This document shows, piece by piece, positions 4,695 to 11,516 of a stretch of 64,000 nucleotides of DNA (its first letter is position 1; each line of letters opens with the position of its first letter). Source of the DNA: Thermoanaerobaculia bacterium (GTDB taxonomy: Bacteria > Acidobacteriota > Thermoanaerobaculia > Multivoradales > UBA5704). Location: the NCBI GenBank assembly GCA_035940855.1, contig DASZEM010000025.1, positions 8,067 to 72,066 of the forward strand, in the 5' to 3' direction. Made by a program: the position numbers and the translations under genes. The notes under the pieces were generated by a model, which was not told the origin of the DNA, made no database searches, and worked only from the letters and a program-made list of their open reading frames with translations.

Positions 4695-6113
4695 TCAGAA
4701 CGTCCTCAGCCGCTCGACGGCCCGCGTCTCGTCGAAGTAGATCACGGCGTCGAATTGCTGGGAGAGACGCGTTTTCAGGTAGTGCGACCGCCGCTCCTCC
4801 TGCGGGTGGTAGAGCACGCCGATGGCCCGCTCCAGGCGCGGCTCGCCGAGAGCCTCGGCCAGCTCGCCGTTGCCGCGGATCAGCAGGAGAGAGTCGCCGA
4901 TTCCCGCCTCGTGCAGGAGGGCGGTGTAGCTCCCCTTGAGCGAGGGCCGGACCTGCTTGAGCTGGCCCCGCTCGCCCCAGACGGAGGCCGCCGCCACCGT
5001 CCCCGTGTAGGTGGTGAAGCCCACGAGCACGGCGTCGTCGCGATGGCGCTGGCGCACGAGCTGGCCGAGGTTCAGCTCGCCGAAGTCCGCCCGCTGGGTG
5101 CCGCTCGCGTCCCCCAGGTGGGAGCTGTGGGCCCAGACGACGATCTTCGCCGGCTTGCCCGGCTTGCCGAGGTGACCCGCCAGCTCGTCCAGCGTCGCCG
5201 CCATGTGGCGGTCCCGCAGGTTCCACGAGGAGACGCTGCTCGCTGCGAGCACCCGGTAGTAGGCCTCGCCGTTCCTCACGACGCGGGCGTGCTGGAGGAG
5301 CGAGAACAGCTCCTCGCGCCGGGCCGGGTCCGCGCCCGCGGCGTGCGTGGCGTTCCAGCTCCGGATCTCCTGGAGCTGCTCCATCGCCTTCTTCTCGCAC
5401 GAGCGGGACGGGTGCGCCGCGGCCTCCTGGCCGTAGACGGGGAAGTCGCCCCGGAACCGCGAGAAGCACCCGTAGCGTTTGCCGGCCCGGCGGGCCGCCG
5501 CGGGATCGAGCCGCTCCAGGGTACTGACCACGGTATCGGCCGAATCCACCACGCCGTAGAGGTCGAGCCCGTAGAAGCCCACGCGCTCTCCAGCGGGGAG
5601 GGCGGCGTTGTGGGTCCGGAGCCACTCGACGAGGTCGCGCACGTCCGTGTTGCCCCACATCCAGCCGGGGAAATCCCGGAAGCCGGCCAGGGCCTGCTCG
5701 GCGTTCGCGGCGTTCCCCAGGCCGCGGACGTAGCGGTTGACGAGGTCGGCGTCGTCCCAGTCGCCCTCGATGGCGACGGCGTCGAAGCCCTTCTCCCGGA
5801 TCAGCCGCTCGGTGATCCGGGCCCGCTCGCGGTAGAACTCGTGGGTGCCGTGGGTCGCGTCGCCCAGCAGCACGAACCGGCTGTCTCCCACGAGGTCCAT
5901 CAGCTTGTCGTAATCGGCTTCATCCCCCATGATCGGCAGGGCCGCCTCCCGTACCGGCGCGATCAGCTCGCCGGGAGCCGCGGCCGCGGTCCGGACACGG
6001 GCGGCGCGCAGGCAGCCGGTCAGGAGGAGCGAAGCGAGGAGGACGAAGAGGACGGTGATGCGATATGAATCTCGCGACGCGAGGCGCGCCGCGTTGAAAG
6101 CTGGTACTGCCAT
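4695..6113 (-). CDS. Erythromycin esterase-family (EreA/EreB-like fold) lipoprotein
   Basis: LLGDATHGTHEFY, GFYGLDLY, WNLRD, VWAHSSH, QQFDA motifs; lipobox LLTGC. Confidence 0.85.
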   Translation of the reverse strand: MAVPAFNAARLASRDSYRITVLFVLLASLLLTGCLRAARVRTAAAAPGELIAPVREAALPIMGDEADYDKLMDLVGDSRFVLLGDATHGTHEFYRERARITERLIREKGFDAVAIEGDWDDADLVNRYVRGLGNAANAEQALAGFRDFPGWMWGNTDVRDLVEWLRTHNAALPAGERVGFYGLDLYGVVDSADTVVSTLERLDPAAARRAGKRYGCFSRFRGDFPVYGQEAAAHPSRSCEKKAMEQLQEIRSWNATHAAGADPARREELFSLLQHARVVRNGEAYYRVLAASSVSSWNLRDRHMAATLDELAGHLGKPGKPAKIVVWAHSSHLGDASGTQRADFGELNLGQLVRQRHRDDAVLVGFTTYTGTVAAASVWGERGQLKQVRPSLKGSYTALLHEAGIGDSLLLIRGNGELAEALGEPRLERAIGVLYHPQEERRSHYLKTRLSQQFDAVIYFDETRAVERLRTF

Positions 6114-6183: not shown

Positions 6184-6702
6184 ATGCTTTTGACGATCCG
6201 CGCCAGCCAGACCCCCGCCCCTGTTCTCGCGGCGCGCCTGGGCCTGCCGTTGGACCGGATCGAGACGTTCGAGCTCCCCTTCGGCCGCGCCCACGCGTTC
6301 TTCCCGGAGGCCACGGAGTCCGAGAGCACCGTGGCGCTGGTGGTGGATATCGATCCTTTGGAGGTCGATCCGGTCGATGAACGCCTCTACACGGCCTCGC
6401 CTCTCCTGGCCCGGGCTGTCGAGGGCCTGCTTGCCAAGCAGGCGGAGGCCGGGCCGGCGATCCCCCTGGAGGCGCGCCTGGCGGCCCTGCCCTGCCAGGG
6501 CGGGGAGGAGCGGCTGCGGCGCGCCTTCGAGCCTCTCGGGTATGCGGTGGCGGCGGAGGCGCTGCCGCTCGATCCGGCCTTTCCGGACTGGGGGCCGAGC
6601 CGGTGCTTCACGGTCACCCTGCGGGCGACCCTGCCCGTCCGGGAGGTGCTCGCTCATCTCCGTGATCTCATTCCGGGGCTGACTGAAGAGGCCGCCCCGT
6701 GA
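6184..6702 (+). CDS. hen1: Hen1 N-terminal (Hen1_L) domain only; lacks the methyltransferase domain
   Basis: MLLTI..., FELPFGRAHAFFPEA, LEARLAALPCQGGEE.LRR.FEPLGY, LD..FPDWG.S, LIPGL match bacterial Hen1 N-terminus; stops at 172 aa; overlaps pnkp start. Confidence 0.85.
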   Translation: MLLTIRASQTPAPVLAARLGLPLDRIETFELPFGRAHAFFPEATESESTVALVVDIDPLEVDPVDERLYTASPLLARAVEGLLAKQAEAGPAIPLEARLAALPCQGGEERLRRAFEPLGYAVAAEALPLDPAFPDWGPSRCFTVTLRATLPVREVLAHLRDLIPGLTEEAAP

Positions 6703-8999
6703 GCCTGCCGATCCCCGAGCTTTCCCTCGTCGTCCTCATCGGACCCTCCGGCGCGGGCAAATCCACTTTCGCCCGCCGGCACTTCCGGCCCACCGAGGTG
6801 CTGTCGTCCGACGCCTTCCGTGCCTGGGTTTCCGATGACGAGCACGACCAGTCGGCCACGCGGGACGCCTTCGACCTCCTCCACCGCGTCGCGGCCAAGC
6901 GGCTGGCCCGGGGCCGGCTCACCGTCGTCGACGCCACGAGCGTCAAGCCCGAGGCGCGCAAGCCCCTGCTCGAGCTCGCCCGCCGCTACTACGTGCGCCC
7001 GGTCGCCCTCGTCTTCGACCTGCCCGAGGAGGTCTGCCAGGAGCGCAACCGCCGGCGCCCGGACCGCCAGGTCGAGCCCTACGTCGTGAGCGGCCAGATC
7101 GACGAGCTCCGGCGCTCTCTCCGGGACCTTGCCAGCGAAGGGTTCCGCCGCGACGTCTGGATCTTCCGCTCGCCCGAGGAGGTCGAAGCGGTCCGCATCG
7201 AGCGGCAGCCCCTGCGGCCGGACCGGCGCTCCGATCACGGCCCCTTCGATTTGATCGGCGACGTCCACGGCTGCGGCGACGAGTTGGAGGAGCTGCTGGC
7301 GAAGCTCGGCTACGCGCCCGATGCCTCCGGCGTCTTCCATCATCCCGAGGGCCGGAAAGTGGTCTTCCTGGGCGATCTCGTGGACCGCGGGCCGCGCGTG
7401 CCGGACGTGCTCCGGATCGCCATGGGGATGGTGAAGGCGGGTTCGGCCCTCTGCCTCCCGGGCAACCACGACGACAAGCTGCTGCGCTGGCTCCGGGGGC
7501 GCAACGTCCGGATCGCCCACGGGCTGGAGCGCTCGATCGAGCAGATCGAGCGCGAAGACCCCGGGTTCCGCGCCGAGGCCGCCGACTTCCTGGCCGGCCT
7601 GCCGAGCCACTACGTGCTCGACGACGGCCGGCTCGTGGCCGCCCACGCCGGCCTGAAGAAGCCCATGCAGGGGCGCGACACGGGGCGCGTCCGCGACTTC
7701 GCCCTCTATGGCGAGACCACGGGCGAGGTGGACGAGCTGGGCCTGCCGGTCCGCCTCGACTGGGCCGCCGAGTACCGAGGGTCCGCCCTGGTGGTCTACG
7801 GCCACACGCCCGTGGCCGAGCCGCGCTGGTTCAACGGCACGCTCAACGTCGACACGGGCTGTGTCTTCGGCGGCAACCTCACGGCCCTGCGCTACCCCGA
7901 GCGGGAGCTGGTCTCCGTGCCCGCCCGGAGGGCCTGGGCGGGCACGGCCCGGTCGGCTCATCTGTTCCTCCCCCAGACGGCTCAGGGACCCTCCGGCGTG
8001 GATCCTCGCTGGCTCCTCTACCTGCCGCCCGCTCCGGTCCTGCCGGAGCCCAGCCGCCGGCCGGGTTTCCTCGAGCACCCCGACGAAGTGTTCGCCCACT
8101 TCCGGGCCGAGAGAATCGAGCGCGCCGTCTGCGAGGAGACGCTCGGAGGTACGAGAGCCGTGGTGGTGGTCTGCCGCGACGAGCAGGAGGCCCGCCGCCG
8201 CTTCGGGGGAGAGGGGATCGGAGCTGCCTGGACGCGCTCCGGCCAGCGTCTGATCGACGGTCCGGCGCTGGAGAAGGCCTTCCTCGGCCGTCTCCGCGAA
8301 ATCCTTGACCGCGCGGGGCTCTGGGAACGGCTGGACACGGGTTGGGTCTGTCTCGAAGGGGAGCTGACGCCCTGGTCGCTGCGGAACGGGGATCTCCTCC
8401 GAGATCGCCATGCCGCCGTGGGCGCGGCGGCCCGGGCGGCCCTGCCCAAGGTGGTGGCGCGTCTCGCCGAGGCTGGAGCCCGGGAGCTGGACGTTCGAGA
8501 TCTCCTGGCCCGGCACCGCGAGCGCTACGAGCTCTCGGTGCGGTTCGTCGAAGCCTACCGCCGCCGCTGCCGCCGGGTCGCCTCGGTGGCGGACCTCCGC
8601 TTCGCGCCTTTCCACCTCCTCGCGACCGAAAAGAACGCCCACGTGGACAAGGACCGCGTCTGGCATCTGGAGACCCTGGCCGAGGTCTGCCGGTCCGGTC
8701 CGGAGCTGCTCGTGGCTCTCCCGTTCCGCCTCGTGGATCTGGGAGATCCCGCGAGCGAGGCCGAGGCCGCGCGCTGGTGGGAGGAGAAGCCGGAGGGCAT
8801 GGCCGTCAAGCCCCTCGCCTTCGCCGCTCCGGGCCGCCGCGGCCTCGCCACTCCGGCCATGCTCTGCCGGAGCCGGGAGGCCCTGCGGCTCGTCCACGGC
8901 CCCGAGTACACGCTGCCGGAAAACCTGGAGCGCCTGCGGACGCGCTTGCGGGATGGACGCTCTCCTGGCCCGGGCCGGGTGTACGATTCCTTCCCATGA
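6699..8999 (+). CDS. pnkp: Polynucleotide kinase-phosphatase (Pnkp) with degenerate, truncated ligase domain
   Basis: P-loop GPSGAGKST; metallophosphoesterase GDVHG, GDLVDRG, GNHD, GHTP; ligase region VDPRWLLYLPP, EGELTPWS, FAPFHLLATE, EGMAVKP but motif I reads EETLGGTRA. Confidence 0.9.
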   Translation: MSLPIPELSLVVLIGPSGAGKSTFARRHFRPTEVLSSDAFRAWVSDDEHDQSATRDAFDLLHRVAAKRLARGRLTVVDATSVKPEARKPLLELARRYYVRPVALVFDLPEEVCQERNRRRPDRQVEPYVVSGQIDELRRSLRDLASEGFRRDVWIFRSPEEVEAVRIERQPLRPDRRSDHGPFDLIGDVHGCGDELEELLAKLGYAPDASGVFHHPEGRKVVFLGDLVDRGPRVPDVLRIAMGMVKAGSALCLPGNHDDKLLRWLRGRNVRIAHGLERSIEQIEREDPGFRAEAADFLAGLPSHYVLDDGRLVAAHAGLKKPMQGRDTGRVRDFALYGETTGEVDELGLPVRLDWAAEYRGSALVVYGHTPVAEPRWFNGTLNVDTGCVFGGNLTALRYPERELVSVPARRAWAGTARSAHLFLPQTAQGPSGVDPRWLLYLPPAPVLPEPSRRPGFLEHPDEVFAHFRAERIERAVCEETLGGTRAVVVVCRDEQEARRRFGGEGIGAAWTRSGQRLIDGPALEKAFLGRLREILDRAGLWERLDTGWVCLEGELTPWSLRNGDLLRDRHAAVGAAARAALPKVVARLAEAGARELDVRDLLARHRERYELSVRFVEAYRRRCRRVASVADLRFAPFHLLATEKNAHVDKDRVWHLETLAEVCRSGPELLVALPFRLVDLGDPASEAEAARWWEEKPEGMAVKPLAFAAPGRRGLATPAMLCRSREALRLVHGPEYTLPENLERLRTRLRDGRSPGPGRVYDSFP

Positions 9000-9775
9000 T
9001 CCAGACCATCGACCACGGTCCCGTCCGCGAGCTGCGGCTCGACCGGCCGCCGGCCAACGCCCTGTCCCCCGAGCTGATCGCCGCCCTGCGCGAGGCGGTC
9101 GAGGGGGCACCGGGCGCCGGAGCCCGCGCGCTGGTCCTCTCCGGTTCGCCCGGCCGGTTCTCGGGCGGCTTGGACGTGCCTCTCCTGATCCAGCTCGACG
9201 CGGCGTCGATCGCGGCCACCTGGAGGGATTTCTACCGTCTGATGAGCGCTCTCGCGGGCTCGCCCATCCCCGTGGCGGCGGCCATCACGGGCCACAGCCC
9301 GGCCGGCGGCGCCGTGCTGGGAATCTTCTGCGATACCCGGATCATGGCTCAGTCACCGGAAGGGGACTTCAGGATCGGCTTCAACGAGGTGCAGGTGGGA
9401 ATCCCCCTGCCGCCCATCATCTTCCGCGCCTTCCGCCGGCTGGTGGGGCCGCGCCAGGCCGAACGGCTCTCCGTCAGCGGCCAACTGATCTCCGGAACTG
9501 AGGCCTACGGGATCGGCCTCGTGGACGAGCTCGTGCCCGCCGGCCGGGTGGTGGAGCGGGCCGTCGAGTGGTGCAACGGCCTGCTCGCCCTGCCGCCCCA
9601 GGCCCTGGCCATCACCCGCCAGACCGCCCGGGCCGATCTCATCGCTTTGTTCAACGAGACCGAGGGCGAGCTGGCGGGGCTGGTGGACATGTGGTTCAGT
9701 GACGAGACACAGACGGTGCTGAGGTCGGTCGTGGAGCGGCTGACGAAGAAGCCCTCGCCTCCCCGATCGGCTTGA
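8996..9775 (+). CDS. Enoyl-CoA hydratase/isomerase family protein
   Basis: RLDRPPANAL, FSGGLD, GHSPAGGAVL, IGFNEVQVG, GLVDE motifs; ATG overlaps pnkp stop (ATGA). Confidence 0.9.
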   Translation: MIQTIDHGPVRELRLDRPPANALSPELIAALREAVEGAPGAGARALVLSGSPGRFSGGLDVPLLIQLDAASIAATWRDFYRLMSALAGSPIPVAAAITGHSPAGGAVLGIFCDTRIMAQSPEGDFRIGFNEVQVGIPLPPIIFRAFRRLVGPRQAERLSVSGQLISGTEAYGIGLVDELVPAGRVVERAVEWCNGLLALPPQALAITRQTARADLIALFNETEGELAGLVDMWFSDETQTVLRSVVERLTKKPSPPRSA

Positions 9776-10586
9776 AGAACGCCTTCCTCACCCCGGCGAG
9801 GACGAGGAGCGTCAGGCCGAAGGTGGCCACGATCGCGGCGCCCGTCGGCAGGTCCATGAGGAACGACAGGGCGACGCCGCCGGCCGAGACCACGGCGCCC
9901 ATCGTCCAGCCGATGGCGAGGCGCGCCCACAGGCGCTCGGCGAAGAGCATCGCCGTCACCGAGGGCACGATCAGGAAGCAGAAGACCAGGAGCACGCCCG
10001 CGATGGCGACCGAGGAGGTCACCACGAAGCCGAACGAGACGTAGAACAGGAAGTCCCAGAAGCGGACGTTCAGGCCCTGCCGCTCGGCCTCCTGCTCGTC
10101 CATCGAAATGAGCAGGAAGCGCTTCCGGAAGATGTAGTGGAAGAGGCCGACGGCCGCATAAAGGACGGCCGTCTTCGCCAGCTCCGGCCAGGTCACCGAG
10201 AGGATGTTGCCGACCAGCATCTCCTTCAGGTGCTCGGTCTCCTGGGTGGCCTTCGACATCACCAGGATGGCGACCGCCGCCGACACCGCGTAGACGATGC
10301 CGATCACCGCCTCCTGGGGGATGCGGGTCTGCCGGTGCACGCGCGACAGGGCGAAGATCGCGGCCCCCAGGAAGGTGAACCCCAGCGAGTAGAGGTAGGC
10401 CGTCGTCGAGTGGAGATCGTTGCCGAGGAGATAGGCCACGGTCGCCCCCAGGGCGGCGATCTGGGCCAGCGAGAGGTCGACGAAGATCACCCCGCGCTCG
10501 ACCACGTGGACGCCCAGATAGGCGTGGATGCCGGTCAGGATCAGGCTCGCCACGAAGGCGGGCAGGAGCAGTTGGAAGATGGTCAT
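9696..10586 (-). CDS. Metal (Zn/Mn) ABC transporter permease
   Basis: Multi-TM protein; LGVHVVERGVIFVDLSLAQIAALG, ISMD...AE..G, AGVLLVF..LIVP (ZnuB-like). Confidence 0.9.
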   Translation of the reverse strand: MTIFQLLLPAFVASLILTGIHAYLGVHVVERGVIFVDLSLAQIAALGATVAYLLGNDLHSTTAYLYSLGFTFLGAAIFALSRVHRQTRIPQEAVIGIVYAVSAAVAILVMSKATQETEHLKEMLVGNILSVTWPELAKTAVLYAAVGLFHYIFRKRFLLISMDEQEAERQGLNVRFWDFLFYVSFGFVVTSSVAIAGVLLVFCFLIVPSVTAMLFAERLWARLAIGWTMGAVVSAGGVALSFLMDLPTGAAIVATFGLTLLVLAGVRKAFFKPIGEARASSSAAPRPTSAPSVSRH

Positions 10587-10595
10587 TTCTTTCCC

Positions 10596-11516
10596 CTATT
10601 TCTTTCCTTTCATGGCCGCCACGAAGGCGTCGATGTCCGCGTCGAACAGCGAGAAGTAGTCCTTGATCGCCGGCGTGCCGCCGACCGACGGGTAGAAGAC
10701 CACCACGGCGGCCCCCGTCTTGCCCGCGATGTAGTCCGGCGTCTTGCGGTCGAAGTAGGGCTCGACCAGGATCACCGGCACCTTCTGCGACTGGATCAGG
10801 TTGATGGTCTCCAGCGTGTGCGTGGGCGACGGCGGGATGCCGGGCTTGGGCTCGACGTGGCCCACGATGTTGAGCTTGAACGCCTTGGCGAAGTTCGGCC
10901 AGGAGTCGTGGAAGGTGACGATCTTCGTGCCCGCGTAGGGAGCCATCCTCGCCCCCCACTCCGCCTGCTTCTGGGTCAGGCGCTGCTCGAAGGCGGCGAG
11001 GTTCTTCTGATAGGTGGCGGCGCCGGCCGCGTCGAGCTGCGACAGGCGGCCGGCGATGGCCCGCGCGACCACCCGGCCGTTCCCGGGATCGGTCCAGTAG
11101 TGCGGGTTGCCGTAGGGGTGGACGTCGCCCATGGCGCGGGTGACCTGCCCCGCGGGCCGCTGGAGGATGTTGCAGCCCACGGAAGCGTCCAGGTAGCCGG
11201 GGTTGCCGGGGTGGATCTTGCTGTTCCGGCTCTGGTCGATCATCGGCGGCAGATAGCCGATCTCGAGCTCCAGGCCGGCCACGATCAGCAGGTCGGCGCG
11301 CGAGAGCTGGAGCACGAAGGACGGCTTGGCGTCCACGAAGTGCGGGTCCTGGTAGCCCTTGGCGAGGGCGAAGGTCTCGACCCGGTCGCCGCCGATCGCC
11401 TGGGCGATCGAGGACAGGTCCTGGAGCGAGGTGACGACGCGGAGCTTGGCCTCGGCCGCGGAGCTGAAGCTCGCGAGCGCGGCGAAAGCCAGGACGACGG
11501 AAAAGATGCGTTTCAT
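10596..11516 (-). CDS. Metal ABC transporter substrate-binding protein
   Basis: Signal peptide; QDPHFV, GNPHYW, TFHDSW, VEPKPGIPPSPTH (ZnuA/TroA cluster). Confidence 0.92.
   Translation of the reverse strand: MKRIFSVVLAFAALASFSSAAEAKLRVVTSLQDLSSIAQAIGGDRVETFALAKGYQDPHFVDAKPSFVLQLSRADLLIVAGLELEIGYLPPMIDQSRNSKIHPGNPGYLDASVGCNILQRPAGQVTRAMGDVHPYGNPHYWTDPGNGRVVARAIAGRLSQLDAAGAATYQKNLAAFEQRLTQKQAEWGARMAPYAGTKIVTFHDSWPNFAKAFKLNIVGHVEPKPGIPPSPTHTLETINLIQSQKVPVILVEPYFDRKTPDYIAGKTGAAVVVFYPSVGGTPAIKDYFSLFDADIDAFVAAMKGKK

Follow-up and report, generated by a model that had tools for sequence, protein, structure and literature searches.

A Thermoanaerobaculia Pnkp with intact end-healing sites, a lysine-less ligase-like domain and a Hen1 cut to its N-terminal domain

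The window analysed here is a stretch of 64,000 nucleotides from a soil bacterium of the Thermoanaerobaculia (Acidobacteriota), and it carries a Hen1-Pnkp pair in which the ligase-like domain of Pnkp lacks its motif I lysine and Hen1 lacks its methyltransferase half. The pnkp gene (6699..8999; coordinates refer to the plus strand unless stated otherwise) encodes a bacterial Pnkp of 766 amino acids. The adjacent hen1N gene (6184..6702) encodes a Hen1 cut to the N-terminal domain that binds the Pnkp ligase (Hen1-N, 172 amino acids), and its stop overlaps the pnkp start by 4 nucleotides. The Lys-less Pnkp together with Hen1-N is a new variant of the Pnkp-Hen1 system, and it is probably an end-healing-only enzyme in which the pseudo-ligase and Hen1-N serve as a non-catalytic docking or scaffold part. 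A sequence-only reading of the same DNA had described a Pnkp with intact healing motifs, an apparently dead ligase and a frame open throughout, and the open reading frame (ORF) of 766 codons is indeed uninterrupted; the link to a truncated Hen1, the clade-wide occurrence of the form and the retention of the ligase fold itself are new.

Family membership was assessed by comparison with a hidden Markov model, and the pnkp product matched TIGR04075 (bacter_Pnkp) with 1015.5 bits against a cut-off of 750. Three Pfam domains were assigned, AAA_33 (residues 10-142), Metallophos (182-372) and PNKP_ligase (434-750), and identity to the domains of Clostridium thermocellum (Cth) Pnkp was 41-43%. The 5'-OH polynucleotide kinase domain (residues 1-170; 6699..7208) carries the P-loop GPSGAGKST, and all of the essential residues listed for the CthPnkp kinase (PMC3902929) are present, namely S17, K21, S22, T23, S37, D38, R41, T80, R116, R120 and R123 in Cth numbering. 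K21, S22, D38, R41 and the lid residues R120 and R123 are kept by every clade member, the window protein included. The binuclear metallophosphoesterase domain (residues 175-417; 7221..7949), a predicted 2',3'-phosphatase and cyclic phosphodiesterase, matched 4J6O with E = 8e-102, and it likewise holds every essential phosphatase residue listed for CthPnkp (PMC3675462): D187, H189, D233, R237, N263, H264, H323, H376 and D392 (Cth numbering). Judged by sequence, both healing sites are therefore intact.

The ligase-like domain (residues 434-750; 7998..8948), which has the adenylyltransferase and helical insert regions of the ligase fold and matched PF16542 with E = 8e-101, has lost three lysines that are invariant in the family. 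The peptide around codon 481 reads RAVCEETLGGTRA. A HMMER alignment with the ligase domain of C. thermocellum Pnkp (3TY9) sets CEETLGGTRA opposite CEQKHMGSRA, and the motif I nucleophile K531 of KHMGSR, which forms lysyl-AMP, is replaced by Thr481 (codon ACG, 8139..8141). The same alignment pairs PAMLCRS with PAVKCRG, and Leu722 (8862..8864) replaces the motif V lysine (Cth K792). Arg562 (8382..8384) replaces a further family-invariant lysine, Cth K614. Comparison was made with 20 canonical proteins, other phyla included, all of which have Lys at each of these positions. In the clade, the K531 position is T, M, V or L in nine of nine members, the K792 equivalent is L in nine of nine, and the K614 equivalent is R, N, T, S, Q, G or D. 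The weight of K614, R568 and K792 in the Cth ligase was judged from motif position and family invariance. The motif I lysine is missing from each of the nine clade members, whose assemblies are independent, and the substitution is therefore not a sequencing slip.

Whole segments have also been lost from this part of the protein. Between the phosphatase and the ligase-like domain only a leftover linker is found (residues 418-433; 7950..7997), from which a conserved segment of ~47 residues has been deleted near residue 428. In the family alignment this pre-ligase segment, LTxQQxxDxVLDLxDVxGKRIxxTRL...AAALExMSRFA, is 96-100% conserved in canonical relatives and is missing in all clade members. 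Four residues before EGMxVKP are also deleted relative to canonical relatives. At the C-terminus, the PF16542 match covers positions 11-332 of 377 and the TIGR04075 match ends at position 800 of 851, leaving positions 333-377 and 801-851 of the respective profiles unmatched; the alignment ends after RLRxR, the canonical C-terminal helical module is missing, and a short non-conserved tail with the stop codon occupies 8949..8999. The module is still present in L034/P0003. These data bear out the sequence-only reading on the intact kinase and phosphatase motifs, on EETLGGTRA in place of motif I and PAMLCRS in place of PAVKCRG, and on the shortened linker and missing C-terminal helices.

A lysine elsewhere in the domain might have taken over as motif I, and a replacement nucleophile was sought. 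No new conserved lysine was found in the ligase-like domain: only K584 and K704 (motif IV) are conserved, both equally so in canonical Pnkp, and Hen1-N holds no conserved lysine across the clade. Residues of the nucleotide pocket that are invariant in the clade are G534, R536, R551, E607 (motif III), EGMxVK774P (motif IV), R794, E797 and R800, while the positions of R568 and K614 are hypervariable. With the lysine that forms lysyl-AMP and two other invariant lysines lost, the classic three-step ligation should be impossible.

The AlphaFold2 model of the ligase-like region (residues 420-766) gave a predicted local distance difference test score (pLDDT) of 87 and a predicted template modelling score of 0.85. 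Its best Foldseek matches were 4E6N_A (TMq 0.86, root mean square deviation 3.0 Å) and 4DRF_A (TMq 0.85, 2.2 Å), which are the Pnkp-C chains of the Pnkp-C/Hen1-N heterodimer; the free ligase domain (3TY5/8/9) was less close, with a TMq of ~0.7. The model suggests that the ligase fold has been kept together with its unique alpha-helical insert, the element that binds Hen1-N (PMC3675462, PMC4411300).

The upstream product matched Pfam Hen1_L (PF12623) over positions 1-191 of 242 (E = 2.8e-35) and TIGR04074 over positions 1-189 of 462, with 118 bits against a cut-off of 340. The ORF stops at 172 amino acids, and the C-terminal, Mn-dependent methyltransferase domain, which acts on the 3'-terminal 2'-O, is missing. 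The Hen1-N model (pLDDT 91.7) was closest to 4DRF_B (TMq 0.88) and 4E6N_B (TMq 0.87), the Hen1-N chains of the same heterodimer. Since both partners are retained and constrained, the simplest inference is that the heterodimer of Hen1-N and pseudo-ligase most probably persists.

Selection on each domain was assessed with maximum likelihood codon models (GY+F3X4) in the Lys-less clade and in a canonical set from the same genus. This per-domain dN/dS comparison among relatives, which the sequence-only reading had proposed, revealed strong purifying selection in all three domains. Omega in the Lys-less clade was 0.066 for the kinase, 0.063 for the phosphatase and 0.110 for the ligase-like domain; the corresponding values in the canonical set were 0.081, 0.058 and 0.072. 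For the ligase-like domain, omega = 1 was rejected (log likelihood, lnL, -4681.3 with omega free vs -5069.6 at omega = 1; 2dlnL ~777), and the same was true of Hen1-N (omega 0.121; lnL -2776.3 vs -2973.8; 2dlnL ~395). Pairwise NG86 values followed the same rank as the maximum likelihood estimates.

Constraint was also assessed site by site, taking as family-invariant those positions that are invariant in all 20 canonical proteins and counting their retention in the core clade. The kinase kept 46 of 47 such positions and the phosphatase 93 of 97, against 54 of 88 in the ligase; changed positions thus numbered 34 of 88 in the ligase and five of 144 in the healing domains (Fisher p = 4.7e-12). 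Ten of the 34 had switched to a new fixed residue and 24 were variable. Site-by-site loss of constraint is confined to the ligase, a pattern that is expected if catalysis has been abandoned but the fold is still needed. The ligase-like domain, with its catalytic residues lost and its fold and sequence under clade-wide purifying selection, is by the operational definition a pseudoenzyme.

Protein and genome searches placed the window in the Thermoanaerobaculia, where the two-gene form is seen at no fewer than nine related loci. The pairing of a Hen1-N-only gene with a Lys-less Pnkp was found at L001, L016, L017, L030, L031, L032, L033 and the deeper-branching L041. At each of these loci the stop of a Hen1-N gene of 167-183 amino acids overlaps or directly adjoins the gene of a Pnkp that lacks the motif I lysine. 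Searching with Hen1-N gave 26 distinct clusters at 90% identity, with lengths of 167-183 amino acids and identities of 67-100%; below these the identity falls to 49% and the matches are fragments of ordinary Hen1. L041 grouped with the clade in the ligase tree (85%), whereas the kinase-phosphatase tree put it beside a canonical protein (82%), and as its placement differs the Lys-less form has either one or two origins.

The history of the locus was examined across 37 species of the GTDB genus of the window. Canonical Pnkp (CEEKHMGSRA, ~850 amino acids) was present in ~18 of them, the Lys-less form in four, a kinase-phosphatase without any ligase domain in two and a Pnkp without a phosphatase in one. 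All forms of Pnkp in the genus adjoin the same enoyl-CoA hydratase gene, which indicates that the variants arose in place at one chromosomal locus, and the Lys-less form occupies the locus where sister species carry the canonical system. At L017 (6001-7515, P0007) and L033 (676-2208, P0006) the phosphatase has been deleted and the kinase is fused to the pseudo-ligase, with Hen1-N kept. That these two loci dropped the phosphatase yet kept the module favours a real role for the pseudo-ligase and Hen1-N. Phosphatase-less Pnkp in which the motif I lysine is retained was observed separately (G025/L064, P0060 and P0070).

The host genome (6.64 Mb, 99.7% complete) encodes one Pnkp, and neither a second intact Pnkp nor a second Hen1 was found in it. 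A search of the genome for the Hen1 methyltransferase gave only generic methyltransferase matches of 35-40 bits. The sequence-only reading had named RtcB and Rnl as separate RNA ligases that might be present. RtcB is encoded in the genome; no Rnl-type RNA ligase was found there, the PF09414 matches being ATP-dependent DNA ligase domains and rejected as RNA ligases. Six ATP-dependent DNA-ligase-type domains (PF01068) were counted. RtcB joins 3'-phosphate or 2',3'-cyclic-phosphate ends to 5'-OH ends. As these are the very ends that Pnkp destroys, RtcB is not a plausible partner and was rejected as the downstream sealer.

On the favoured explanation, the two genes derive from the bacterial Hen1-Pnkp operon for RNA repair and would heal RNA ends without sealing or methylating them. 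The kinase would phosphorylate 5'-OH ends to 5'-phosphate, and the metallophosphatase would turn 2',3'-cyclic-phosphate or 3'-phosphate ends into 3'-OH. The pseudo-ligase would pair with the retained Hen1-N, and the pair may dock or position broken RNA, or hold the complex together, for both healing activities. The resulting 5'-phosphate and 3'-OH products could then pass to other enzymes, for 5'-phosphate-dependent and 3'-exonucleolytic decay, for 3'-end rebuilding or to an unrelated ligase.

Several observations weigh against this explanation, and some of them suit slow decay instead, with the ligase-like domain and Hen1-N as functionless leftovers kept only because truncation would harm folding or expression of the kinase-phosphatase. 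Omega of the ligase-like domain is ~1.5-fold above that of canonical relatives, which indicates some relaxation, and 24 family-invariant ligase positions now vary. The C-terminal module has been cut at differing points in different clade members, which carry different tails, and at least that part has decayed. Within the genus every stage of reduction is seen at the one locus, from canonical through Lys-less, phosphatase-less and kinase-phosphatase-only forms to the 12 of 37 species with no Pnkp. At least two separate deletions in the genus have removed the ligase domain and Hen1 completely at this same locus (L010/L050; L052); they imply that some purpose is served by healing on its own and that the module can be lost, and the pseudo-ligase may be dispensable in the long run. 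Compared with canonical Hen1, clade Hen1-N lacks an internal segment of 18 residues and has lost the near-invariant YVNDRPY motif, which reads PVDERLY in the window; binding to the pseudo-ligase is consequently not assured, and the sequence hints that the interface or function of Hen1-N has shifted. Lastly, the pnkp frame is interrupted at two loci, by an in-frame stop in L001 and by a frameshift in L016, the latter a 1-nucleotide deletion in a nanopore-derived metagenome-assembled genome (MAG). The frameshift looks like an assembly error. At L001:5940-6035, a stretch of ~100 nucleotides departs from all relatives by some ten A>C or T>G changes, among them a TAT>TAG stop and the loss of the phosphatase Asp; such a patch is typical of assembly error and is probably an assembly or sequencing artefact, not a true pseudogene, although real pseudogenisation at the two loci is possible. 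Slow decay is nonetheless improbable. The ligase-like domain has an omega of 0.11, with omega = 1 rejected, across a tree that spans 4.9 substitutions per codon, hen1N is a separate gene with no folding link to the kinase yet has an omega of 0.12 and is present in 26 clusters, and the pseudo-ligase was kept where the phosphatase was deleted. The proposal of the sequence-only reading that the protein is a repurposed kinase/phosphatase rather than a product of simple decay is thus supported by the kept healing sites, the lost lysines and the low omega of the ligase-like domain.

The domain might alternatively retain some nucleotide chemistry, either as a step-3-only ligase that acts on 5'-adenylylated RNA without forming lysyl-AMP or as a sensor of ATP, AMP or 5'-phosphate that gates the healing domains. 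Some ligases can still close pre-adenylylated nicks when the motif I lysine is mutated to alanine, the clade has kept several residues of the nucleotide pocket invariant, and the ten switched positions moved to a new fixed residue rather than drifting. We regard this as quite unlikely, given that three invariant lysines are lost, that R568 and K614 are hypervariable and that both the C-terminal module and the 47-residue segment have been lost; furthermore, no enzyme that would supply AppRNA was identified. An equally doubtful alternative is that the protein cleans 5'-OH/3'-phosphate DNA breaks for ATP-dependent DNA ligases, in the manner of mammalian PNKP, instead of repairing RNA. The six PF01068 domains and the lack of an Rnl-type ligase in the host genome would fit such a role, and DNA ends are also substrates in vitro for the kinase and phosphatase of CthPnkp. 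The Cth kinase has, in addition, been crystallised with a DNA oligonucleotide (PMC3902929). However, the locus has no linked DNA-repair genes and clearly descends from an RNA repair operon, and DNA end processing leaves the retention of Hen1-N, an RNA-repair-specific partner, unexplained. There is also an outside chance that the Lys-less ligase fold and Hen1-N have gained a function of their own, as a reader or clamp for a broken RNA or as a nucleotide or 5'-end sensor that directs or gates the kinase and phosphatase. This is suggested by the ten refixed positions and by the recurrence of Lys-less domains in other phyla, some of them paired with Hen1, and if true Pnkp-type 'ligase' domains would be a recurrent source of non-catalytic RNA-end-recognition modules.

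The genes around the pair were also inspected. An enoyl-CoA hydratase gene (8996..9775) follows pnkp, and its ATG overlaps the pnkp stop (ATGA, 8996-8999), which suggests translational coupling. Throughout the genus the hydratase lies downstream of pnkp whatever the Pnkp variant, in some cases with one or two genes between them, and this conserved neighbour is probably outside the system. At L010 (6001-8055)/L050 the frame runs without a stop into the enoyl-CoA hydratase, giving 685 amino acids and a possible fusion protein. A gene of the erythromycin-esterase family (PF05139, E = 1e-114; 4695-6113, minus strand) is divergent from hen1N, with ~70 bp between the starts, and the same neighbour was found at L017. 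In most relatives a conserved membrane protein of ~300 amino acids with terminal transmembrane helices follows the Lys-less pnkp with an overlapping start (L030:2997-4313; L001:7243-8559; L031:2898-3791; L033:2238-3566), and L016 has two tandem copies (8276-9586 and 9601-10920). It usually has C-terminal ankyrin repeats, and only the ankyrin part matches a family; the membrane protein was found neither in the window, nor at L017, nor in the whole genome of the host. A promoter and terminator scan of the region (70% GC) gave nothing informative, and no meaningful match was obtained with the PADLOC anti-phage defence profiles.

With canonical bacterial Hen1-Pnkp the window system shares the order of hen1 then pnkp with an overlap, the kinase and phosphatase folds with all their catalytic residues, a ligase fold that includes the helical insert, the N-terminal fold of Hen1 and the locus of its sister species. 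It differs in having no motif I lysine, K614 or motif V lysine, no 47-residue segment, no C-terminal module and no Hen1 methyltransferase half, and because of these losses it should neither seal nor 2'-O-methylate. Healing-only enzymes are known, among them T4 Pnkp, Runella HD-Pnk, the eukaryotic Clp1/Grc3 kinases and the human 2',3'-cyclic phosphatase ANGEL2, and they are useful without an attached ligase since they license decay, 3'-end rebuilding or sealing by another enzyme. They differ from the window Pnkp in fold or domain combination, and to our knowledge none combines a conserved but inactivated ligase domain with a partner protein dedicated to it. In the Capnocytophaga gingivalis Pnkp1-Rnl-Hen1 heterohexamer (PMC4411300; PDB 4XRP/4XRU) the healing Pnkp1 and the sealing Rnl are separate proteins. 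As proposed here, Hen1-N docks in that complex on the insert of a Pnkp-type ligase fold, but its Rnl is active, its Hen1 keeps the methyltransferase and its Pnkp1 is of the T4 type, whereas the ligase fold of the window is fused and predicted to be inert and no active Rnl was found; the heterohexamer was rejected as a match on these grounds. The ligase-like model aligned to 4XRU/4XRP with a Foldseek TMq of 0.57-0.62 and 14-16% identity. The domain resembles pseudoenzymes in general (PMC10211241) in that a catalytic motif is lost, the fold is under purifying selection and the domain would work with active partners. No description of a Lys-less Pnkp or of a Pnkp-type pseudo-ligase was found in the literature.

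An exhaustive HMMER search with the ligase-like domain returned 2034 relatives. Among the best 150 representatives of these, 127 cover motif I and 13 of the 127 have no lysine there; the 13 include four full three-domain Pnkp (P0354, P0357, P0381 and P0389) and Hen1-like/ligase-like fusions such as P0284 and P0301. A further Lys-less family with a Hen1-like N-terminus comprises P0279, P0287, P0325, P0328 and P0379. The genomic locus of P0354 was searched for and none was found. P0381 (L076:2601-6547), from a Bacteroidota MAG, is an independent Lys-less three-domain Pnkp whose motif I reads VQEMPGAKRVV, and its nearest genomic relatives all have CEEKHMGSR. It follows a full-length Hen1 in which the S-adenosylmethionine-binding motif LDLGCGxG is degenerate (LDLNPGDG). 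From these sequences, Pnkp-type ligase domains seem to have lost their nucleophile repeatedly, and in different phyla, while the domain itself was kept. Stand-alone Hen1-N genes elsewhere are a different phenomenon and were set aside: P0238 and P0231 are split Hen1 beside a methyltransferase ORF and a canonical Pnkp, and P0223 is an orphan.

Annotation pipelines call all of these proteins "polynucleotide kinase-phosphatase" with an implied ligase, which overstates what the Lys-less variants can do. What bacterial Pnkp-Hen1 does in vivo has so far been deduced chiefly from "repair with immunity" experiments in vitro. Here sealing and methylation have been discarded and the rest of the system is under selection, which argues that the cell benefits from end healing even by itself; that the Hen1-N/ligase module is itself retained under selection argues that it does something besides catalysis, for example docking or architecture. 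The system is of interest to RNA-repair specialists and directly testable, and the clade provides a natural separation-of-function system in which ideas on healing and docking can be examined.

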